A stretch of DNA of 64,000 nucleotides from Candidatus Pacearchaeota archaeon (GCA_041659945.1 JBAZXH010000001.1:627262-691261), one strand, 5' to 3'; positions 5,212-16,160 are shown, counted from the first letter of the stretch. Numbers and translations are program-made. Notes: a model not told the origin generated them from the letters alone.

Positions 5212-7947
5212 TTAAAAAATATCCAGTATCTCATCAATATCATCTTCGTTTATTTCTTTTAACACCTCAACATCATCATCTTCACTTTTTTTGGATGTTG
5301 GTTTTTCTTCTGAATTAGAGATTTCCTCTTCTACAATATCACTTGAGTTATCTGAATAATCATCTGCTACATAGTTTGGCACTTCTTTTTTGTTATTTGC
5401 ATTATCTGGTTTTTCAGAGTTTAGTTCGTTTAGTAATTTTCTGTCTTTTAGTTCTTCATCTGAAATTTGAGGTAGTTCGGGTATTTCATCCAGTACACTT
5501 TCTTCTTCATTTTTATTTTCATTCTCATTCAGAGGTTCTTGTATACTTTCAAATTCTACATATTCTTTTTTTGTTTTATCAAATTTTGAATAATCTTTTT
5601 CTTTTGGTTTATTATTTTCATTTTTCTCTTTTTTAAAATCATTTTTTGGTTTTTGGAAATTTGTTTTTTCAACTTGGTTCTGATTTTGAGGATGAGAACT
5701 TTCTAGTTGAGAAACTAGAACAGAAACATCGTGTGCCGCATCGGCATTTACAGAAATACTCTTTATTCCGTTTTTAATTAGAAATTCAACCATTTGTTTA
5801 TTGCTTCCTGCTTGACCACAGATACTTGATTCTACATTATGTTCTTCACATGTTCTTAAAACTCTTTTTATTGCATTGGTTACTGCAGGGTGTAGTTCGT
5901 TGTAAATATACTGAACTTGTTCATTTCCACGATCAATTGCAAGAACATACTGTGTTAGATCATTTGTTCCGAAGCTAATAAAGTCAAGACCAACATCAAG
6001 TAAATTTTTAATTATCAAACAAGCAGCAGGAGTTTCAACCATAATTCCTCTTTTTATGTTGCTTAGTTTATCCATGCCTAATTCTTTTTCTAGTTTTTTG
6101 GTTTCAATTACTTCTTCTGGAGAAATAACTTGGGGCATCATTATACCAAAAGTTTTATGTGGGAACTTTTCAGCACAGTGTTTTATTGCATTTAATTCTG
6201 CTTTGAAAAGACTAGGATTTTTTAGAGAAAATCTTATTCCGTGCATGCCTAACATTGGATTAAGTTCTACTTGTTTTGGTGCACCATCTAGATGGGAAAA
6301 TTCATCTGATCTTATATCTGAAGTTCTTACCCATACTTCTTTAAAATGTTCAGCAATCTGTTCAATTCCTGTTTGAATTAATTTTGAGTATTCACTTTCT
6401 TTTCCTTCTTTTTGGAATTTTATTGGGTGTTTGCCAGATGAGGCAATTATTCCCTCTAGTCTTAGAAGTCCAACAGCTTCACAGCCGCTTTCAGCAGCCC
6501 GGTTTGCAAAGGCAGGTATGTCTACTATTACTTTTATTTTTGTTTTTGTTGGAACTATCTTTTTGATTTCAACTTTTTTAGATTCGGTAAAACCTTCATA
6601 AACTCTTCCATTGAAACCATCAACAGTTATAACTTGACCGTCTTTTAGTGTTTTGGTAGCTTTTTCTGTTCCCACAACTGCTGGAATGCCCATTTCACGG
6701 CTTACAATTGCGGCATGAGACGTAATTCCTCCTTCATCTGTTACAATTGCTGCAGCTCTTTGCATTGTAACAACCATATCAGGATTTGTCATTTCTGTAA
6801 CTAAAATGTCTCCCTTCTGAACTTTATTTAACTCATTTAGATTCATTATGATTTTTACTTTTCCAGAAGCTAGTCCGGGTGAGGCTCCTAAACCTGAAAG
6901 AATTATATCTCCTTTGACCTCAGTTTTTGATTCTTGGGCTTTGGTTGTTATTGGACGAGTCTGTACAATGTAAATATCTGCATCTTCAACCGAGAATTCA
7001 ATATCTTGGGGTTTGTCGTAATGTTCCTCTAGTTTCATTGCATAGTCAGCTAGACGTTTTATTTCTGAATCTTTTAGAACTTGTTCTTTACTTTTATTTG
7101 GTGTTAATTTAATTTGTTCGGTGTCTCCTTGCGAATTTCTAACTAGTGCAACTTTTTTTTCAGCAATTCTTTTATCTAGAATTTCTAAATCTCTTGAAAC
7201 TTCATAGTTATCTGGTTTTATCATTCCAGATACTATTCCCTCTCCTAAACCAAAAACAGCTTCAACCATTACACTTGTATCATTTTTTACCGGGTTTCTT
7301 GAGAACATAACACCTGACTTTTCTGAATCAATCATTTTTTGAACAACCACTGCCAGTGAGAACTTTTCTTTACTAAATCCACGTTTTTTTCTGTAGTATA
7401 TTGCTCGTGCTGTGAAAAGACTAGCAAATACTTTTTTAACAGCTTCTATAAGTTTTCTATTTCCTTTGATATTTAGATAGCTTTCTTGTTGGCCTGCAAA
7501 ACTTGAATCTGACAGGTCTTCTGTTGTTGCACTTGATCTTACTGCAACAAATATTGGTTCGCTACCATGTTTTAATATTCCTAGAGCATATCTTCCAGCC
7601 TGTTCAAGTGTTTTTTTATCAACACTTAGATCTTCATAGGCCTCAAGAATTTCTGCTGCAAGATCATCTGGTAGTTCTGCATTAACTATTGTTTGACGTA
7701 TTTCTTTAGCTTTACTTTCTAGTTCTTCTGTTTCATCAACATTAATACTGTCAAGAAGTTGGAATATTTTGTTTTTTATTCCAGATTTTTCAATAAAATG
7801 ATAGTAGGCTTTTGTTGTAACCACAAATGCTGGTGGGACTGGAAATTTTGAATTAAAAATCTCTGCTAAATTTGCTCCCTTTCCTCCAGCTATCGGACCA
7901 GAATTCTTGTTTAGTTCTGATAGCCAGCGGATAAATTCATTTGCCAC
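5212..7947 (-). CDS. ppsA: phosphoenolpyruvate synthase (pyruvate, water dikinase) with low-complexity C-terminal extension
   Basis: N-terminal GGKGANLAEI ATP-grasp region, central TSHAAIVSREMGIPAVVG phospho-His swivel domain, and C-terminal PEP-utilising TIM barrel (GTNDLTQY). The last ~155 aa are Lys/Glu/Asp/Asn-rich low complexity. Confidence 0.92.
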   Translation of the reverse strand: MANEFIRWLSELNKNSGPIAGGKGANLAEIFNSKFPVPPAFVVTTKAYYHFIEKSGIKNKIFQLLDSINVDETEELESKAKEIRQTIVNAELPDDLAAEILEAYEDLSVDKKTLEQAGRYALGILKHGSEPIFVAVRSSATTEDLSDSSFAGQQESYLNIKGNRKLIEAVKKVFASLFTARAIYYRKKRGFSKEKFSLAVVVQKMIDSEKSGVMFSRNPVKNDTSVMVEAVFGLGEGIVSGMIKPDNYEVSRDLEILDKRIAEKKVALVRNSQGDTEQIKLTPNKSKEQVLKDSEIKRLADYAMKLEEHYDKPQDIEFSVEDADIYIVQTRPITTKAQESKTEVKGDIILSGLGASPGLASGKVKIIMNLNELNKVQKGDILVTEMTNPDMVVTMQRAAAIVTDEGGITSHAAIVSREMGIPAVVGTEKATKTLKDGQVITVDGFNGRVYEGFTESKKVEIKKIVPTKTKIKVIVDIPAFANRAAESGCEAVGLLRLEGIIASSGKHPIKFQKEGKESEYSKLIQTGIEQIAEHFKEVWVRTSDIRSDEFSHLDGAPKQVELNPMLGMHGIRFSLKNPSLFKAELNAIKHCAEKFPHKTFGIMMPQVISPEEVIETKKLEKELGMDKLSNIKRGIMVETPAACLIIKNLLDVGLDFISFGTNDLTQYVLAIDRGNEQVQYIYNELHPAVTNAIKRVLRTCEEHNVESSICGQAGSNKQMVEFLIKNGIKSISVNADAAHDVSVLVSQLESSHPQNQNQVEKTNFQKPKNDFKKEKNENNKPKEKDYSKFDKTKKEYVEFESIQEPLNENENKNEEESVLDEIPELPQISDEELKDRKLLNELNSEKPDNANNKKEVPNYVADDYSDNSSDIVEEEISNSEEKPTSKKSEDDDVEVLKEINEDDIDEILDIF

Positions 7948-8089
7948 TTGTTCCTCTTTTTTATATTGTTTTTAGTTAGGAAAGTTAATAGATTTGGTTT
8001 AATAAACTTTATTATGGCGTAGAAGCGAAGTTATATTTGTGAAAGAGAGTATTAGGAATATTTAAAAGGCTTAGTATAGGGTAATTAAA

Positions 8090-8515
8090 ATGAAAAAAAT
8101 AGTTTTAAGTAAAGCAGAATGTGGAGATTTGGTTCCTCATTGGCCTGATCTTAGCAAAGAAAAGCTTGTTAAGTTATGGGGGAGAAACATTAGAAATAGT
8201 AGACACTCTTTTAGTCCTGAAAAAAGAGTTGTTGTTATTGATTGTTTTCCTATTTTAATTGATAATACGGGTTTTATCTTAAATGGTAAACATAGATCAG
8301 TTTATTGTTTTAGTCATTGGTTGGATGCAGGACTTGAGGCTTGCATTGTAGAAAATGAAAAAGATGTAAGATATCATATTCCTAAATGTTGTTATGGTGA
8401 AATGGGAGTCAGAGGGGTTCTGGATGCTATGGAAAAAAAGAACCCTTTAGTTCAATATTGCCATTCTATTGGAGTTTATACAATTAAAGATTTAGCCGGT
8501 TTGGTTAAACAGTAA
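8090..8515 (+). CDS. hypothetical protein (weak ParB/sulfiredoxin-like hint)
   Basis: 141 aa. FILNGKHRSVYC loosely resembles the DGHHR motif of ParB-like nucleases. This is not strong. Confidence 0.4.
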   Translation: MKKIVLSKAECGDLVPHWPDLSKEKLVKLWGRNIRNSRHSFSPEKRVVVIDCFPILIDNTGFILNGKHRSVYCFSHWLDAGLEACIVENEKDVRYHIPKCCYGEMGVRGVLDAMEKKNPLVQYCHSIGVYTIKDLAGLVKQ

Positions 8516-8561
8516 TTTTTGTTGCTGACAGCAAGATTTAAATAGTAGCTTACTAATAATT

Positions 8562-8903
8562 ATGTGTATGATAATTAGTAAGGAAGATATATTGAGAATA
8601 AACAAAGGATTTGGAGGAACATTAAGAAGTGACTCTAGTTTAGACTATGCTATAGACCTGCAGGAAAGTAAAAAACTTGGTCCGTATAAGAAGTTAGCCT
8701 ATCTTTTGAGGGCTATACTGGTAGATCATCCATTTTCAGATGCAAATAAAAGAACAGCTATGTATGTTTCATTGGAGTTTGCAAGTGAAAATAAAAAGCA
8801 AGTAAATAATGATATATTGTTACACCAGATTATTTCAATTGCAAAACAAAACATAATTGACATAAGAAATATAGAATGGAGAATGAAAAATGCAATCAGG
8901 TAA
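8562..8903 (+). CDS. doc: Doc (death-on-curing) family toxin, Fic fold
   Basis: HPFSDANKRTA matches the Doc-type Fic motif HxFx(D/N)(A/G)NKR. The size is typical at 113 aa. Confidence 0.8.
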   Translation: MCMIISKEDILRINKGFGGTLRSDSSLDYAIDLQESKKLGPYKKLAYLLRAILVDHPFSDANKRTAMYVSLEFASENKKQVNNDILLHQIISIAKQNIIDIRNIEWRMKNAIR

Positions 8904-9105
8904 AGAAGATAAAATATTGAAAAAATATAAAGAACTATTTGAAGCTCTTGAAAATTATGATAAAACAAGAGAGCTGCCATTTCAAAGAAAAAGAATAGAT
9001 ATCACTCTTTCAGTGAGAACTATAGACAAACTTAAGAGTATGAAACATAAAACAGGTAAGCCCGTATCCCAAATTATTGAAGAGTGTTTGAATAAGAATA
9101 ATTAA
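8890..9105 (+). CDS. ribbon-helix-helix (CopG-like) putative antitoxin
   Basis: 71 aa. RIDITLSVRTIDKLKSMKHKTGKPVSQIIEECL has a strand-helix-helix pattern. Overlaps the doc stop by 14 nt. Confidence 0.55.
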   Translation: MQSGKEDKILKKYKELFEALENYDKTRELPFQRKRIDITLSVRTIDKLKSMKHKTGKPVSQIIEECLNKNN

Positions 9106-9120
9106 TTTGATTTTAGTTAT

Positions 9121-9570
9121 TTATAGCTCAACAAATTCTGATTTAATCTGTTTTAGTGAGGTTGTAGAGATCATTTTTATGAATCCATATTTCTTAATTG
9201 ATGTTTTTACCCATTCATAATATTCATCAATATCCCTTGTTCTTAATTTAATTAATAGTTCATATTCCCCTGTACAAATATCAATGCTTTCAACCTTTTG
9301 GTCTTTTGCAATTTCTTTTGCAATTGTTTCTGGATCAGAGTAACTTTTTTTATCAAGGTTTATAAAAATATACACACAATGCCCCTCATTTATCTTTTTA
9401 TAATCAAAAACTGCTTTGTATGTCTTTATTACCTCATCTCGCTCTAGTTTTTTTATATTATAATGTATTGTTGTTGAAGGTTCTTTTAGTTTTATTGCTA
9501 TTCTTGCTATTTGTGGAGTACAATATCCTTGTTTAAAAAGTTCTATTATTTTTGGTGTTATATCTTTCAT
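9121..9570 (-). CDS. Lrp/AsnC family transcriptional regulator
   Basis: N-terminal HTH (CTPQIARIAIKLKEPSTTIHYNIKKLERDEVI) plus a C-terminal RAM-like alpha/beta domain. 149 aa. Confidence 0.75.
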   Translation of the reverse strand: MKDITPKIIELFKQGYCTPQIARIAIKLKEPSTTIHYNIKKLERDEVIKTYKAVFDYKKINEGHCVYIFINLDKKSYSDPETIAKEIAKDQKVESIDICTGEYELLIKLRTRDIDEYYEWVKTSIKKYGFIKMISTTSLKQIKSEFVEL

Positions 9571-9671
9571 TTTGTTATAAATTGAATAATATTCAACTAT
9601 TTATATACTTTTTGGTTATTATCTGAATAATCTACAATAAGATATATATAGACTCTTTTTTATCTGGCTTT

Positions 9672-10103
9672 ATGAAACAAAAAACAAAAATAAATACAAA
9701 TGGAACCAAAAGGCTAGCAATTCTGCTCGGGCTTGCAGGAGTAGATGGAGCAGTAGCTCTAGCCGCGGTTGCAGGACTTTTTACAATTGGAAATGCTTTG
9801 TTAATTGCAGTTTTATTTATGGCAGGGCCCGGAGCAATTACTCTTGCTGCTTTAATTGATGGTTCACTTAAGGAGAGAATGCTGAGTGCTCTTTTAGCAG
9901 GAGTTATTGCTACTTGTATAGTTATGCTTTCTGCAGGTTTTGGGCCTAAAATACTTGGGTTTGTTAATCTAAATGTACTAAGAGTTATTGGAGGAATTTC
10001 AATAGGGTTAGTTGCTTTGCTTGTTGCAGGTGTAAAAATTCCAAATAATTTACCATTAGGAGTTATGGCTACTGGTTTAGTTCTTAGTTTTATATTGAGG
10101 TAA
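9672..10103 (+). CDS. Gly/Ala-rich polytopic membrane protein
   Basis: 143 aa with about 4 hydrophobic segments. The opposite-strand ORF 9632..10138 is its shadow. SD-like AGGAGGG at 10106-10112 couples it to the next gene. Confidence 0.6.
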   Translation: MKQKTKINTNGTKRLAILLGLAGVDGAVALAAVAGLFTIGNALLIAVLFMAGPGAITLAALIDGSLKERMLSALLAGVIATCIVMLSAGFGPKILGFVNLNVLRVIGGISIGLVALLVAGVKIPNNLPLGVMATGLVLSFILR

Positions 10104-10117
10104 TTAGGAGGGCTAAA

Positions 10118-10573
10118 ATGAATGGATACTTTGTACATGCATTACTTGCTGAAGATAGAATAAGAACTCTTAAATGTGACTGTGAAAGATCTTTGCCAAG
10201 AATTCAAAGAGAGTTTGGTTTAGAGATAACACTGGATGAGGTATTTGAAAGAGTTTGGGCTCATAGAGATAGTTTAGAATTAGTTGAAAGATTTAATGAT
10301 GCTAAATTAACTGTTGAATCTTTGGGAAGAGATTTAGATTTATATAGAAACAATCCTGGTAGTGTTGTTGAAACTATTGGGTTTTCAGATAGGGCAAGTT
10401 CAATTGCGAAAAGTTTATCTGAATCTTACAGTAGACTTTTGGAGTTGAAAAATGAATTAAGAATTATAGGTGTTAATCCTGAAAATTGTTCTTTTCCTAA
10501 TACAATGTATGAATTATACAAATCTGCGAGTATGGTTGGGGAACAGACAGAGATGGAAATGGAGGACAAATAA
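10118..10573 (+). CDS. hypothetical protein (operon I)
   Basis: 151-aa ORF, with ATG 6 nt after AGGAGGG. No motif recognised. Confidence 0.55.
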   Translation: MNGYFVHALLAEDRIRTLKCDCERSLPRIQREFGLEITLDEVFERVWAHRDSLELVERFNDAKLTVESLGRDLDLYRNNPGSVVETIGFSDRASSIAKSLSESYSRLLELKNELRIIGVNPENCSFPNTMYELYKSASMVGEQTEMEMEDK

Positions 10574-10574
10574 A

Positions 10575-10943
10575 ATGGTAAAAAGTTTTTCTGAGCAAAA
10601 GAATCATTTGTGTATTTGTAATGATGAAGCTAATAATTACCAATTTATGGTGGCTAGAACTAGAAATCAACGTACAAATGATACAAGAATTTATGCAATA
10701 CCCTGTTTAGAAGTTGAGAGAGTGGTTGCTGAAAGAGAAGAAAATAAGAGTATAATTGCCTTTTTAGAAAGAGTTCATTTAGATCCAACTATTGAAGAAG
10801 CATATCTTTTAACTCAGGGCTGGAGAGATCTTTGTGAAGCTAAAGCTGCTTTGTTAAAGTATGGAGGAGTTTTAGTTAGAACTGTTTCAAGCAAACCTGT
10901 TTTAGAAGATTTAACAAGAAGTTTAATTGAAGGAAATAAATAA
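10575..10943 (+). CDS. hypothetical protein (operon I)
   Basis: Start moved to the ATG at 10575, which follows the upstream TAA at 10571-10573 (TAAAATG junction). The track start at 10470 would overlap the upstream gene by 104 nt. Confidence 0.5.
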   Translation: MVKSFSEQKNHLCICNDEANNYQFMVARTRNQRTNDTRIYAIPCLEVERVVAEREENKSIIAFLERVHLDPTIEEAYLLTQGWRDLCEAKAALLKYGGVLVRTVSSKPVLEDLTRSLIEGNK

Positions 10944-10944
10944 A

Positions 10945-11169
10945 ATGAAACAACAATCTGTGGAAGAATTGGTTAGACTTGCAAAAATATCTCTTTCTTG
11001 TGGAAGAGATAAAAAGTATTGGGTTTATGTTGATGAACTCCAGCTTCTTTTAGAAGCAGGAGCAAAATACTGCAAGAAAAATAGCTTTGAAAGTGATGAC
11101 AGATATACTCAAGAGGTTTTGTACGAAGGGATTATTTTTCAAACAGTTACAGAGCACAAATTGGATTAA
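10945..11169 (+). CDS. hypothetical small protein (operon I)
   Basis: ATG at 10945, one nt after the TAA at 10941-10943 (TAAAATG junction). 74 aa. Confidence 0.5.
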   Translation: MKQQSVEELVRLAKISLSCGRDKKYWVYVDELQLLLEAGAKYCKKNSFESDDRYTQEVLYEGIIFQTVTEHKLD

Positions 11170-11239
11170 ATTATAACTTACAAGTAGTTACAAATGGAAA
11201 GGTTTAAAAAGTGAAAAATGTCGGTAAATATGAGGTAAA

Positions 11240-11614
11240 ATGAAATCAGAATCAGTAAGACATAGATTAAATGTTAGGGCCACTCCCTTTCATTTAAAAA
11301 AATTTGTAGCATACAGAAGTGAACGTGAACATGTGTATGTTAGCTATGGCTTTATGACTCAAGATGGTTTGGAAGTTCCTTTTCATGAAACTGAGAATCA
11401 GTCAGTATATCAAATTAGAGTTTATGATAGAAATGGAGTATCAAGTCCGGGTGTAAAATCAGGTCCATATGTTACATTCTCAAGTACTGCTTTTCAAGCA
11501 TTAAGTAATGAGCATTTTGTTTTAGACTTGTTAAGAGAAATATCTAAAACAAAACCCCCTTTAGAAGAGTTAGAAGGTTTAATTGAAGAATCACTTGAAG
11601 GTATGGAAGATTAG
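11240..11614 (+). CDS. hypothetical protein (operon I)
   Basis: 124-aa ORF with GAGGT 5 nt upstream of the ATG. Confidence 0.5.
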   Translation: MKSESVRHRLNVRATPFHLKKFVAYRSEREHVYVSYGFMTQDGLEVPFHETENQSVYQIRVYDRNGVSSPGVKSGPYVTFSSTAFQALSNEHFVLDLLREISKTKPPLEELEGLIEESLEGMED

Positions 11615-11666
11615 TTAAGAAATATTAAAGTGAATATAAAGATTAAATAATGTTTGATAAAATAAA

Positions 11667-12152
11667 ATGGCAAAAAAGTATACTAGAGAAGAAATTGAAG
11701 GTTCAAGAAATTGGATGAGAAAAAATTGTTTTCCAAATGTTCAAGTTGATTTAGCTGAGGCTGGGCTTAGATTTGATTATTTTGTAATGCCTCAGAATCT
11801 TTGTCCTCAACTGCCTGATTTTGTTTATAGATGTACTGGAAGTCCTGAAGATGGATATGTTTTTGGAATTTCTGAAACTGTTCCTGAAATATTTAGACCA
11901 TTTGCAGTTGCACACGAGTTTATGGAATTTGGTCAAATTGGTTTGGACGTTAATGGTAGATGCTTGCAGGCTTTAGAAAAAGAAATTGAATTAGTTCCAG
12001 GTGATATTAGACCTGAATATATTAAAATGAGAAGAAGATTTTTTGATAATCTTGTTAAGTGGACTAGAGCTCAACCTGATTATGATCAATTAGATATTGT
12101 TGAATTTGAAGGAAGTTTGGCAAGATTAAATGAGCTTGTACGTGGGGAATAA
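11667..12152 (+). CDS. hypothetical protein with HExxE-like motif (operon I)
   Basis: 161 aa. AVAHEFMEF could be a degenerate metallopeptidase-type motif. This is unproven. Confidence 0.5.
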   Translation: MAKKYTREEIEGSRNWMRKNCFPNVQVDLAEAGLRFDYFVMPQNLCPQLPDFVYRCTGSPEDGYVFGISETVPEIFRPFAVAHEFMEFGQIGLDVNGRCLQALEKEIELVPGDIRPEYIKMRRRFFDNLVKWTRAQPDYDQLDIVEFEGSLARLNELVRGE

Positions 12153-12153
12153 A

Positions 12154-12897
12154 ATGGCAAAAAATAAGGTAATTAAGATTGCGAAAAGATTAGCTTTGGT
12201 TAGTTTAATTACTGCAGGTTTAGTTGGAGTTACTGTTGAAGTTGGACTAAGGATGAGAAATTATTTAGAAAGACCAGTAAACTACACTTTAATTCATGTT
12301 AAGCAGACTCATGCACTTAGACCAGAAGAATTTTCTCCAGCTTCAAGATTTGATAAATATAATGCTCAATGTAAAACATTAGACTCTTTAGAAGATGTTT
12401 TTAATTCAAATCCTATTGATGGATTTTATCCAGAAGGGGTTAGAACTGAAGATTGTGAAAAATATAATTCTGGACTTAGAGATTTGTCTGAAAGAATAGA
12501 AGATCCAGAATCAACTTCAATTTCAGTACTAAATGCTATTATTAATCCAACTGATAAAGTTCAATCTGCATTTGCACAAGCGCCTGCAGCCACAGTTTTT
12601 AGTTTAAGACATAACTTAGCTTGGAACCCTACTGGAACAAGAAGAATTAATGAAAAAGCATCAGCAGAAGTAAAAAGAGATCCTTATACAAATTCTCCAA
12701 TAGTTTATGGTGATAGAGAGGACTTTTTATTAAAACAAATTTCAAAAGATTATCCTGCTGGAGGAACTTTTTTAACTCTTTATGGTTCTAATCATGATTT
12801 CTCAGATAATGTTGACAGATGGAATGAAACACATCCAAAAAGAAAGATTTCTTTGGTTGTAGTTGATGGTAAGAATGTTGAGAGGAAAGCGAGATGA
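12154..12897 (+). CDS. N-terminally membrane-anchored hypothetical protein (operon I)
   Basis: ATG at 12154 follows the TAA at 12150-12152 (TAAAATG junction). Single N-terminal TM (LALVSLITAGLVGVTVEVGL). HVKQTH...EG...YGSNHDF is faintly TraB/Tiki/ChaN-like. Confidence 0.5.
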   Translation: MAKNKVIKIAKRLALVSLITAGLVGVTVEVGLRMRNYLERPVNYTLIHVKQTHALRPEEFSPASRFDKYNAQCKTLDSLEDVFNSNPIDGFYPEGVRTEDCEKYNSGLRDLSERIEDPESTSISVLNAIINPTDKVQSAFAQAPAATVFSLRHNLAWNPTGTRRINEKASAEVKRDPYTNSPIVYGDREDFLLKQISKDYPAGGTFLTLYGSNHDFSDNVDRWNETHPKRKISLVVVDGKNVERKAR

Positions 12898-14027
12898 GAA
12901 ATAATAATTCAATTGCAAGAAGAACCTTTTTAGGTTTATGTGGAGCTGGAGCTTTGAGTTCATTAGTTGGTTCATCTACTAGTTGTTCTAGGTCTAAGGC
13001 TTATACTTTAAAAGAACCAAACCAAGACGAACTTAGAGAGAGTGTTTTAATGTATTTAGCTCAGCCTAAATTTTCAGGTAAAGGATTTATGAGACAGATA
13101 AGTGGAACAGATGCTGAATTAAGGCTTTTTGATCTTCCTGAAAAGATGTTGTACTTTTCTATTCCAAATAGAGTTTTGAATCAGGGAAACTTTGAAGAGA
13201 CTATGGCAAAGTTAACACTAAATCTTCAAGGCGTAAGATTTGGCAAAACAGATGCAGATAAATTTTTTGGAGGCATTGGTGATCCAGTTTCTCTTGATGG
13301 TTATGTTTTAAATGTTCCTGAAACTTTTTTCTTTGGATTTCCTTCTGGAGATTTTAGAATTGATCCAAAGGGAGTTATATCTGTACCATTTCCTAGTGCA
13401 AATTATAATTTAAGTTTAAAAGAGCTTTATAATTTTCTTGATAATGCTAGCATATATGGTGGAAATTTGGTTTTTAATTCTGGACGAAATGAAAGAGGTT
13501 TAGTAGCTGGAGCTAATCACGGAGCTTTTGTTGCAAGAAAGGGAGAACCTTCGTTGGAAAGATTTGTCAGATCTTTAACAGATGGAATTTTATCTGGCGA
13601 AGAAAAAGCTCAAAGAGTTTTGGATTTTGTGACTGGTGAGGTGGCCTATGATCATAGTGAATCTGGATCAGGTACTGAGGTTTTGAAAAGACCAAATGAA
13701 GTTTTAATGACTGGAGGTTCTGATTGTAGTGGTAAGACTATTTTGTTAGCTTCGCTGTTAGAACAAACTGGAGTTAATTATTTAATCTTGTACCTGGCTG
13801 ATAGAAAGCATATAACAACTGCTGTTGAGGGTAATTTTAGAAATGAAAATGGACTTTCTTTTAAAATAAATGGAAAAGTCTATCATGCTGCTGAGGCTAC
13901 AACTCCACATTTTAGAATCGGAGAAACTGTTGTAGATACCCCCTGGTCTTCAAAAGATATTACTGGTTTTCAAAGACCCGGATCAGATGCTAGAGTTTAT
14001 AGTGCAAGAACCGGAGAAGCTTTGTAA
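12894..14027 (+). CDS. twin-arginine signal, transglutaminase-like cysteine peptidase-fold protein (operon I)
   Basis: N-terminal ARRTFLGLCGAGAL followed by SSTSC. C-terminal GGSDCSGKTILLASLLEQTGV...KHITTAVE matches the Cys...His core of the transglutaminase-like superfamily. ATGA overlap with the upstream gene. Confidence 0.6.
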   Translation: MRNNNSIARRTFLGLCGAGALSSLVGSSTSCSRSKAYTLKEPNQDELRESVLMYLAQPKFSGKGFMRQISGTDAELRLFDLPEKMLYFSIPNRVLNQGNFEETMAKLTLNLQGVRFGKTDADKFFGGIGDPVSLDGYVLNVPETFFFGFPSGDFRIDPKGVISVPFPSANYNLSLKELYNFLDNASIYGGNLVFNSGRNERGLVAGANHGAFVARKGEPSLERFVRSLTDGILSGEEKAQRVLDFVTGEVAYDHSESGSGTEVLKRPNEVLMTGGSDCSGKTILLASLLEQTGVNYLILYLADRKHITTAVEGNFRNENGLSFKINGKVYHAAEATTPHFRIGETVVDTPWSSKDITGFQRPGSDARVYSARTGEAL

Positions 14028-14094
14028 GATTTCTGTATTATATAAAAATTTAAATAAATCGTTTTATCATTGAAATTGATTAAAATGACAAAAA

Positions 14095-15300
14095 ATGAAC
14101 CTTTTGAAAAGGTTCCCAAACCTAGAAAGAAAAATGACAAAAAAGGCTTTTTTTCAGAGAAGAAGTGTTGCTGAAATTAGAGGATTAAATTGTGAGGTAG
14201 TTGATACTCCTGAAGGATTGGTGAGTAGAATAGAAAACTTAGATCCTGAAAATGAAGGGTTAATAATTGATGTAGGGCAGGTTCCATTAACTCATCCAAG
14301 TTTTACTAGTTTAACTTCTGATTTAGAATATGCCTCAAGAATGGCTTTAAGAGGAGTTAAAAGAAAAGGAGATAAAAGAGAGTTTATTTCATATGTGCCA
14401 ATTCAACAACCAAGGTCTGTTGAAAGTGCTATTGCCATATCAAGACAAAGACATTTACCTTTTAAATTAAGAAATAAATCTTTATTTGAAGCAATGAGAT
14501 CTATTCCTGAGGGAGAAAATTTTTATGTAGGGTATATGTTTTGGCCTATTCTTGGAAATAATAAATCTCCTATTTTAGTTCCCTATTGGGCGTTGTGTAA
14601 CGGAACAGTTCTTGATGCTTACTCTCAAAGAATTTGTAAAAAACTTCCTTTTAATAAAGATCATCCAGAACAAGCAGGAACAATTGTTGAGCGAAATTAT
14701 GCTCCGGAGTTTATTACAAGAGTTCCTTCAACAGAAGATGGAAAGGGAAGATATTTGGTTAAGTGGCATAATGTTCCAATACGATCAATTCGTGAGGATG
14801 ATAGGGCAGTAATTGGTTGGAGTACAAGACCTGCTTATGGGAGAGTTAGTGAGGGGGCTTTTGAAGAAAGAGAAGATTTGGCACCTATGCATGAGTTTTT
14901 TACTCAGATTAGTCACGAAGGAAGTCATAGAAGAGGAGAAAGCTTTGAGTTTACTTTAGTTGATCCACATGCATTTGCATCATGGAGTGAATTACTAAGA
15001 TTCAGTATGAGAGAGGGAGATTATTCTCCTTGGGATACGTCTCAATATGCACTTTTATCTAGACTGGATGCTGCATATTGGAATAAAGAGAATAATAATC
15101 TTTTAGTTAGAGAAAAAAATACTCAAGGAAATTATGTTTTTAAACACCCAAGAATTGATCAACTTTCTGTTTTGTTTGCAAGACATGTTGGAGCTAGAAT
15201 AAAACAGCTTTCACCAGGACAAGTTCAAGAAACAATGTACTGGGATCCAGAAAGAGACGGAAAGATAGGAAGATATCCAGTGTTACCTGGAGAAAAATAA
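14095..15300 (+). CDS. hypothetical protein
   Basis: 401-aa ORF with an alternative start at 14134. TATA-like TATAAAAATTTAAATA at about 14041 suggests it may have its own promoter. Confidence 0.5.
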   Translation: MNLLKRFPNLERKMTKKAFFQRRSVAEIRGLNCEVVDTPEGLVSRIENLDPENEGLIIDVGQVPLTHPSFTSLTSDLEYASRMALRGVKRKGDKREFISYVPIQQPRSVESAIAISRQRHLPFKLRNKSLFEAMRSIPEGENFYVGYMFWPILGNNKSPILVPYWALCNGTVLDAYSQRICKKLPFNKDHPEQAGTIVERNYAPEFITRVPSTEDGKGRYLVKWHNVPIRSIREDDRAVIGWSTRPAYGRVSEGAFEEREDLAPMHEFFTQISHEGSHRRGESFEFTLVDPHAFASWSELLRFSMREGDYSPWDTSQYALLSRLDAAYWNKENNNLLVREKNTQGNYVFKHPRIDQLSVLFARHVGARIKQLSPGQVQETMYWDPERDGKIGRYPVLPGEK

Positions 15301-15302
15301 TC

Positions 15303-15509
15303 TTATTCTACTTTTCTTTTTCTGTCTAGACCAAATAACACCAAACCTAGAACTATGAAAATAATACCAAAGCTTATACTTTTAAAAGAAGATATTTCTG
15401 TAACGCCTACTGCAGAACCCAAAATTCTCACTTGAGATGTTAACATTAAAAATATACCAAAAACTACTGAAACCAGACTTAGTACGCGGAAAAATACTTT
15501 TGATCTCAT
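15303..15509 (-). CDS. small two-TM membrane protein
   Basis: 68 aa with two hydrophobic helices and a basic C-terminus. Confidence 0.4.
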   Translation of the reverse strand: MRSKVFFRVLSLVSVVFGIFLMLTSQVRILGSAVGVTEISSFKSISFGIIFIVLGLVLFGLDRKRKVE

Positions 15510-15617: not shown

Positions 15618-16160
15618 TTATGCAGTGTTTTTTGATATTAAAAGTTGGGTTTTGCATGGTAATTTTGCTTTAACTCTACTTACAACTTCTTTTGCAATTC
15701 TTATTTGTTTGTCTCCAGAAGTAGCTACCAAGTATATTTCTTGGTTTTGCTTTACCATGGCAGCTCTACCTATTGATTTTCCAAATGAAGCTGACATTCC
15801 TGTCTGCATACGATCTGCTCCAGCACCAGTCAACATTTTATTTTCTCTTAGAACATGATGAGGATAAACTCTAACTTCAAAATAATAAAGTCCTTGCATT
15901 TGAGTTTCAAGGTTTCTTGAGATCCACTGTCTTGCAGCTTCTAAAGCATTATCTCTTATCTGAACATTTTCTTTGCTAACTAACCTTAGAATTGTGTCAA
16001 ATTTGTTAGCATCATAGTTCTTTCTATTTCCCATGTTAAACTTACTGATTTTTTGATTTGGAGCTGCCTTTATGAAGTTCTTTGATTTTTTCTTTGACTT
16101 TCTAGTATATGGTCTTGCATATCTTTTTGAGTAAGCTCCAGCTTTTCTTAGTGCTGCCAT
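15618..16160 (-). CDS. rpl10e: 50S ribosomal protein L10e (uL16)
   Basis: AGAYSKRYARPYTRKS...ISKFNMGN and the overall pattern are typical of archaeal/eukaryotic L10e. Confidence 0.9.
   Translation of the reverse strand: MAALRKAGAYSKRYARPYTRKSKKKSKNFIKAAPNQKISKFNMGNRKNYDANKFDTILRLVSKENVQIRDNALEAARQWISRNLETQMQGLYYFEVRVYPHHVLRENKMLTGAGADRMQTGMSASFGKSIGRAAMVKQNQEIYLVATSGDKQIRIAKEVVSRVKAKLPCKTQLLISKNTA

Follow-up and report, generated by a model that had tools for sequence, protein, structure and literature searches.

Do nine genes packed almost end to end on one strand form a functional system, or can such an array be put together from unrelated pieces? The question is raised by nine plus-strand open reading frames (ORFs), g1 to g9, which fill positions 9672-15300 of a 64,000-nucleotide (nt) stretch of DNA from Candidatus Pacearchaeota archaeon (GCA_041659945.1, JBAZXH010000001.1), referred to below as the window. 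The window covers positions 627262-691261 of a 764-kb contig in an assembly of four contigs and 1.04 Mb that is estimated to be 87% complete. An initial annotation, made from the sequence alone, had described the array as one translationally coupled operon with envelope-associated members. The array is better read, with a probability of about 0.6, as a strain-specific mosaic island in which an Lrp-g1 pair, small orphan proteins and a group formed by g6, g7 and g8 stand beside a partner-less g9. At least four unrelated modules would have accreted on one strand, within an insertion of ~7.3 kb between the phosphoenolpyruvate (PEP) synthase and rpl10e genes of a Pacearchaeota-type DPANN genome.

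The insertion and the distribution of its genes

The array lies in a block of ~7.3 kb (7948-15302), an insertion seen in this species alone among those of its genus. It is flanked on the left by the PEP synthase gene PPS (5212-7947, minus strand) and on the right by a TM68-family gene (15303-15509, minus strand) and rpl10e (15618-16160, minus strand). PPS and L10e were looked up in 20 other species of the genus, 13 of which have both on one contig. The two genes are 0.1-1.9 kb apart in these 13 congeners vs 7.7 kb here, which identifies the block as an insertion. The empty site, with the order PPS-TM68-(0 to 2 genes)-L10e-L35Ae, was read in genomes G006, G001, G010 and G003. In G004, PEP synthase directly adjoins the small TM68-family gene and rpl10e, and in G013 the only gene between L10e and PPS belongs to the g9 family. 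Archaeal ribosomal protein genes (L10e, L35Ae) border the site.

The genes of the array are distributed independently of each other. A search with g1-g7 as a concatenated query, first in 101 relatives and subsequently in 401 genomes of the class (~500 in total), found no two of them in one locus elsewhere, only single scattered homologues. Gene order recurs in two cases only, as g6-g8-g9 at locus L056 and as g2-g9 in G010, the other homologues being dispersed. None of the nine proteins has a paralogue elsewhere in the genome. The claim of a single functional operon is therefore not borne out: conserved synteny is largely absent, and homologues of g6, g8 and g9 stand in other contexts. Scans of all nine proteins against Pfam, NCBIfam, PHROGs and PADLOC gave nothing usable save a sub-threshold match of g8 to Transglut_core, and no PADLOC match of g1-g9 was better than E=0.04. 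This agrees with the initial annotation, which had recognised no member other than the transglutaminase-like one.

Proposed modules within the array

The physical description of the array was confirmed. All nine same-strand, tightly packed ORFs are present, with intergenic gaps from g1 to g9 of 14, 1, 1, 70, 52, 1, -4 and 106 nt, and the junctions are as first described: a Shine-Dalgarno (SD) sequence before g2 (AGGAGG at 6 nt), stop-start TAAAATG junctions at 10571, 10941 and 12150, and an ATGA overlap at 12894. The TAAAATG junctions link g3 and g4, and g5 and g6 are also preceded by TAAAATG. Genome-wide, TAAA stands before the first ATG in 97 of 798 long ORFs and TAAAATG stop-start couplings number 54. 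TAAAATG is thus a genome-wide start context, which indicates tight packing and no special signal of the array. SD cores were found before g2, g3, g5 and g8, and none before g1 or g6. TATA-like boxes lie 27-29 nt before the g1 ATG, in the spacer that separates it from the divergent Lrp gene (9571-9671), and 25-32 nt before the ATG of g6. These boxes, the SD pattern and the g9 spacer suggest three transcription units, g1-g5, g6-g8 and g9. The array is compact, co-directional and probably co-expressed.

Hydropathy predicts about four transmembrane (TM) segments in g1, one N-terminal TM segment in g7, and a signal followed by a cysteine in g8, and no hydrophobic segment in g2-g6 or g9. The envelope association first proposed thus holds for g1, g7 and g8, and the six other products look cytosolic. 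The products of g2-g9 are poor in Lys, Asn and Ile, as initially stated: these residues together make up 15% vs a genome mean of 24%, and Arg reaches 7.5% vs 4% in the genome. GC content is ordinary (0.34), and GC at third codon positions (GC3) is 0.16 vs 0.21 in the genome, i.e. slightly low, not raised. Because GC3 is below the genome mean, the Arg-rich, Lys/Asn/Ile-poor bias of g2-g9 (10118-15300) has no counterpart at synonymous sites.

The first module would comprise g1 (9672-10103, plus strand), a membrane protein of 143 amino acids (aa), and the divergently encoded Lrp/AsnC regulator (9121-9570, minus strand; Pfam AsnC_trans_reg, 4.7e-07). Six genomes of the class have a g1 homologue (34-58% identity), and an Lrp orthologue adjoins it in five of these six (G050, G267, G450, G356 and G417) as well as in the window. 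This ties g1 to Lrp and not to g2-g8; judged by gene neighbourhood, Lrp/AsnC and g1 are a conserved pair of their own. Within the genus, Lrp was found only in G001 (on a separate contig) and in G010 (~60 kb off), both away from PPS/L10e. Searches of g1 against transporter families gave only NAAT (E=0.03), and a homologue matched DUF5794 (E=0.003), both far below cut-off. The pair would most likely be a regulator-controlled transporter of small molecules, possibly of the amino-acid type, and its conservation across Nanoarchaeia-type genomes makes it a lead worth following.

The second module, g2-g5, would consist of small acidic cytosolic proteins. Its genes are probably transcribed together with g1, given the SD sequences of g2, g3 and g5 and the leaderless-type start of g1. 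The acidic, soluble g2 (10118-10573, plus strand, 151 aa) has a GGAGG SD core and matches no family in the libraries. Its one homologue, with 45% identity, lies in G010 directly upstream of a distant g9-family gene, and g2 would thus be otherwise associated with the g9 family. The remaining three, all on the plus strand, are small soluble orphans: g3 (10575-10943, 122 aa), g4 (10945-11169, 74 aa) and g5 (11240-11614, 124 aa), the last with a GAGGT SD core and a 70-nt gap before it. They have no convincing relatives among the ~500 genomes of the class.

The third module would be g6-g7-g8, for which a separate TATA-like start probably lies before g6. It would join a cytosolic g6 with a helical bundle bearing an ExxE motif, a membrane-anchored g7 and an exported g8. 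g6 (11667-12152, plus strand, 161 aa) contains the sequence AHEFMEF, so that the size and HEFxEF motif first assigned to it stand. It belongs to a widespread uncharacterised family: an exhaustive search retrieved 263 cluster representatives at E<=1e-3, so that the family counts at least 263 clusters. The closest homologues (52-57% identity) stand alone. One homologue lies between genes that by eye resemble those of a primase and an RNA polymerase subunit, another precedes an unrelated set including an archaemetzincin-like protein, and those of G002 and G076 stand in yet other contexts. The predicted structure (pLDDT 97, pTM 0.91) has an N-terminal helix, a four-stranded sheet and a four-helix bundle. 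In the H-E-x-x-E-F motif, E84 and E87 are near-invariant and lie on the first bundle helix; a role for them in binding a metal or ligand is conjecture. An assignment of HEFMEF to the HExxH metalloproteases was rejected, as the His is not invariant and only E84 and E87 are. A 144-aa gene of G010 was likewise rejected as a cryptic g6 relative (hhalign probability 1%). Against the Protein Data Bank (PDB), g6 gave no sequence match and a best Foldseek match of E=0.17.

g7 (12154-12897, plus strand) is 247 aa long, not 248 as first given, and is anchored by one N-terminal TM segment at about residues 9-33. No homologue was found in a search of 5.8 billion proteins. The only remote relatives in the class are two, a 318-aa lipobox protein of G205 and a protein of G144, and all three have the motifs LxHxxQxH, RED and YGxxH(D/N)xxDNxxxWN in common. 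A relationship to metallohydrolases of the TIKI/TraB/ChaN type (HxxxxH, RED, GxxH) was considered and not supported: neither g7 nor the G205 relative gave a Pfam match at E<=1, and there was no PDB profile match. PDB profile searches with the g6, g7, g8 and g9 families and with both families of g9 partners described below gave no real match.

g8 (12894-14027, plus strand, 377 aa) matches Pfam Transglut_core (PF01841) at 4.4e-4 and 20.9 bits vs a cut-off of 23. More than 325 homologues were found, and many of them, at 40-52% identity, carry a precomputed PF01841 assignment. They are annotated as Woesearchaeota-type archaea or as bacteria (Bacteroidia, Ignavibacteriae, Dadabacteria, Pyrinomonadaceae). 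D277-C278, H306 and E334 are invariant in the alignment of the family, a pattern that fits the superfamily of transglutaminase-like thiol enzymes. The Cys-His core recognised in the initial annotation is supported by the invariant Cys278 and His306 and by the homologues that carry PF01841. At the cell surface, Cys278, His306 and Glu334 would form the active site of a thiol hydrolase or transamidase acting on peptide or isopeptide bonds, as the fold family suggests.

The export route first assigned to g8 is not supported. The sequence IARRTFLGLCGAGALSSLVG, which includes ARRTFLG, is a formal match to a twin-arginine (RR) signal, being a motif of the type S/T-R-R-x-F-L-K before a hydrophobic stretch. 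The genome, at 87% completeness, gave no match to TatC (PF00902) or TatA (PF02416), whose presence the initial annotation had proposed to check and for which controls were positive in 11 of 14 reference genomes, and among 16 inspected homologues 14 carry lipoprotein signals of Sec type that lack RR. The twin arginine (12894-12990) was seen in the family only in this protein, in its closest relative P0014 and in P0126, which is annotated as Dadabacteria, and is possibly a leftover of transfer from an organism with a Tat system. Cys31 at the end of the signal is near-invariant in the family, whose signals end in GMPGC, ASGC, LTGC or FIAC, the lipobox of g8 itself (SSTSC) being atypical. Since no Tat machinery was found, g8 would reach the surface through Sec, probably be lipid-anchored there at Cys31, and work as a hydrolase or transamidase. 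It belongs to a large family of transglutaminase-like proteins with export signal and lipobox, annotated as Woesearchaeota-type DPANN or as bacterial, which offers candidates for the processing of surface or host-envelope peptides.

The g6-g8 arrangement can be followed at L056, a 2-kb contig of a close relative from ENA, accession ERZ27250200. There, the end of a g6 homologue is followed by TAAAATG, a g8 homologue, the same spacer as in the window and a g9 homologue, without g7. The g8 homologue has 75% identity, the RR motif and the lipobox LSIGC. In G010, the order from Lrp through g2, g9 and the partners of g9 to the TM68-family gene is collinear with the window. g7 and, probably, g3-g5 would be later additions.

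The fourth module would be g9 alone, the lone member of a fast-evolving family, with a conserved promoter of its own and with its partners lost in this genome. The ORF of 401 aa that was first called (14095-15300) is present, but all homologues begin further downstream, so that the real start is most likely the ATG at 14134 (MTKKAFF...). This gives a protein of 388 aa (14134-15300, plus strand) and the g8-g9 gap of 106 nt. The spacer (14028-14133, plus strand) contains an AT-rich, TATA-like stretch (ATAAAAATTTAAATAAAT...TTTATCATTGAAAT) that is better conserved in L056 than the flanking coding sequence, and for this reason g9 very probably has its own promoter.

The same spacer carries a hairpin insertion of ~50 nt (14096-14130) bordered by duplicated AAAATGACAAAAAA. 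The region 14082-14144 (core 14096-14130) contains a ~35-nt module, TGAACCTTTTGAAAAGGTTCCCAAACCTAGAAAGA, with a 19-nt palindrome, GAACCTTTTGAAAAGGTTC, and the start codon of g9 is duplicated; the close relative L056 lacks exactly those ~50 nt. The core AAAGGTTYCCAAACCTA is present in five copies in the genome vs none for a control, and in one to eight copies in seven other genomes of the genus. One copy lies before an rpS13-like gene, again with a duplicated start (AAAAATGGCAGAAAAT) around it. The 35-nt module looks either like a miniature insertion element whose target duplication of 14-17 nt takes in the ATG, or like a shared 5'-leader element.

The g9 family has been seen only in DPANN-type genomes and metagenomes, one of its bearers being deposited as "Candidatus Woesearchaeota archaeon". 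Eleven homologues have 42-61% identity and distant ones occur in G004, G010, G013 and G020; within the genus, identity is 22-60% and the distribution patchy. The structural model of g9 is confident (pLDDT 87.5) and has no fold match in the PDB, and the sequence has no nuclease or DNA-binding signature. The motif HEGSH was rejected as that of a zincin because it is lost in homologue P0011 and in the distant homologues. As judged from models compared with the PDB as whole chains, g6 and g9 would have folds without a solved counterpart, for which "new fold" is a provisional name. Both families, that of g6 with its at least 263 clusters included, are good targets for structural genomics.

Elsewhere, the g9 family keeps characteristic company. 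Directly after the g9-family gene, seven loci encode one or two large proteins that fall into two related partner families, among these loci L013 (11151-13535), L015 (11162-12508), L017 (6006-12572), L019 (7488-9317), L043 (4592-7223) and L061 (2614-5632). The partners contain helix-turn-helix (HTH) arrays (Pfam HTH_23, HTH_19, HTH_3), a weak NucS_C match and a weak HNH match. They are 340-610 aa long; one family has N-terminal HTH arrays and a C-terminal domain of ~190 aa with invariant E...D-F...E-W-H-P, the other an invariant D...E-V-K, and both motifs resemble PD-(D/E)xK by eye. Neither family matched the PDB or PADLOC beyond weak HNH and HTH hits, and neither has a member in this genome. 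Since the g9 family elsewhere precedes multi-HTH proteins with PD-(D/E)xK-, NucS- and HNH-like motifs, it is probably DNA-directed. In many genomes, the g9 loci have a common neighbourhood that includes PPS, TM68, L10e, a GTPase, AP-endonuclease-2 and nucleotidyltransferases. Homologues of g1-g8 are not found beside those of g9 except at L056; G010 has a g2 homologue before its distant g9-family gene. We tentatively propose, as a possibility of low probability, that the g9 family is the signature of an undescribed, DPANN-restricted DNA-conflict or mobile module at a hypervariable PPS/rpl10e site, in which g9 would be joined by a nuclease-like multi-HTH partner or by two of them and, in some cases, be preceded by a g2-like gene. 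The copy in the window would then be partner-less, would have recruited g6-g8 and would have received the 35-nt mini-element recently in its leader.

The part of the insertion to the left of Lrp (8090-9105, plus strand) encodes an uncharacterised Cys-rich protein of 141 aa, a Doc/Fic toxin (8562-8903, plus strand; Pfam Fic 8e-07, above cut-off) and, overlapping the latter, a ribbon-helix-helix (RHH) protein (8890-9105, plus strand; RHH_1 0.0038, below cut-off). On the other side, the small membrane protein of the TM68 family invariably neighbours PPS and rpl10e; its length is 67-74 aa, and greater in some genomes. Besides the window copy (15303-15509, minus strand), members of this family were recorded at L011, L013, L017, L019, L043 and L065-L068, and several genomes have one close to a g9-family gene too.

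Competing explanations

The alternative that survives best holds that the whole 7.3-kb block, from the 141-aa gene through Doc/RHH and Lrp to g9, is the decayed remnant of one mobile or defence-type island, in which g9 and perhaps g2 would be left over from a nuclease-associated system and the toxin-antitoxin pair would stabilise the block. The clean insertion relative to 13 congeners, a presence/absence polymorphism at a fixed site, argues for such an origin, as do the Doc/RHH pair within the block, the patchy and divergent g9 family, tied to multi-HTH nuclease-like proteins and at one locus to IS630-type transposase fragments, and a non-native amino-acid bias. This bias is however not matched by a foreign GC or GC3, and library scans found no integrase-type Pfam domain, nor any match to relaxase-, replication- or capsid-type families, in the block. 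There is no tRNA or Rfam family in or beside it and no convincing terminal or att-like repeat around it. PHROG and PADLOC gave no meaningful match, and g2, g3, g5, g7 and g9 have no relatives on viral contigs. Moreover, Lrp-g1 is a conserved cellular pair across families, and in many genomes g9 homologues keep one chromosomal neighbourhood, consistent with vertical inheritance within a variable region. A single decayed element is thus unlikely.

A still less probable explanation is that of one dedicated envelope or host-interaction operon, co-transcribed and translationally coupled, in which g1, g7 and g8 would act at the membrane or surface and g2-g6 would be cytosolic chaperones, regulators or assembly factors. 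It would account for the tight junctions, the three envelope-type proteins, the ATGA coupling of g7 and g8, the g6-g8 adjacency seen again at L056 and the compositional bias common to all products. Against it, no envelope member has conserved synteny: g8 homologues stand alone in all four other contexts inspected, which are mutually unrelated and one of which is from a member annotated as Bacteroidia; g1 is linked with Lrp and not with g2-g8; and g7 is absent where g6-g8-g9 recur. In addition, g6 is found singly among genes that by eye look like housekeeping genes in another lineage, an export signal is missing from six of the nine products, and no Tat pathway was found. A surface or host-interaction role, as first suggested for the array, is plausible only for g7 and g8 and is not retained for the whole.

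A chimeric join in a metagenome-assembled genome is highly improbable, for although the assembly has four contigs and an estimated completeness of 87% and the block is unique within the genus, the block is interior to a 764-kb contig, matches the genome in GC and third-position composition, has the TAAAATG start style native to the genome and holds one of the five copies of the genome-specific 35-nt module, and a g9-family gene separates L10e from PPS in G013 as well.

The mosaic island itself has several observations to contend with. As the linkage at L056 and in G010 indicates, the association of g2, g6, g8 and g9 in the lineage goes back some time, and part of the cluster is older than this genome. 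This linkage argues more than anything else against a grouping by chance alone, and because of it the operon view survives, with low probability. The three 1-nt TAAAATG junctions and the ATGA overlap pack the genes as in a true operon, and co-expression may reflect a joint role. The amino-acid bias common to all products could mean a shared origin, and the orphan status of g3, g4 and g5 is relative to the ~500 genomes searched.

For annotation, the mosaic island carries a warning that tight, coupled arrays in reduced DPANN genomes need not be functional systems: genome compaction and the genome-wide TAAAATG start style, not a shared function, would explain the packing seen here. Of the side results, the two families that lack structural relatives and the association of g9 with nuclease-like partners have the greatest value. 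The findings alter no major concept.

Comparison with known systems

Several elements of the block have counterparts among known systems. Some Lrp/AsnC regulators are encoded divergently from small membrane exporters under their control, e.g. Lrp-brnFE of Corynebacterium glutamicum. The pair in the window is alike in that an Lrp/AsnC gene stands beside the small polytopic membrane protein g1, in six genomes spanning several families. It differs in that g1 matched no transporter family, and its regulation by Lrp is putative.

The g9 homologues recall restriction-type or mobile modules that contain proteins with HTH domains and nucleases of the PD-(D/E)xK, NucS-like or HNH type. The likeness lies in their partners, through the HTH arrays, the weak NucS_C/HNH matches and the motifs D...E-x-K and E...D...E-W-H. 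g9 itself differs, with no nuclease or DNA-binding signature and no PADLOC or PDB match, and the partners are absent here.

The transglutaminase-like cysteine protease superfamily goes back to Makarova, Aravind and Koonin (1999), as cited in PMC10117817. Proteins with a transglutaminase domain have been proposed to cross-link or recycle archaeal walls from outside the cell, and the superfamily includes the phage pseudomurein endoisopeptidase PeiW (PMC10117817). g8 resembles its members in a core with an invariant Cys (SDCSGK), an invariant His (HI.VAV) and a third acidic residue, and would be exported like many archaeal members. It differs in that the third residue is Glu vs the usual Asp, in that its own score falls under the Pfam cut-off, and in that it adds ~220 N-terminal residues forming a conserved domain without family assignment. 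No solved structure is detectable from the g8 sequence, and the family also holds members annotated as bacterial.

The block as a whole can be compared with prokaryotic variable regions or genomic islands that carry toxin-antitoxin pairs. In contrast with these, it lacks an integrase, a tRNA target and flanking repeats and does not deviate in GC, and it is alike in being a discrete insertion relative to congeners, with patchy content, a Doc/RHH pair and orphan genes.

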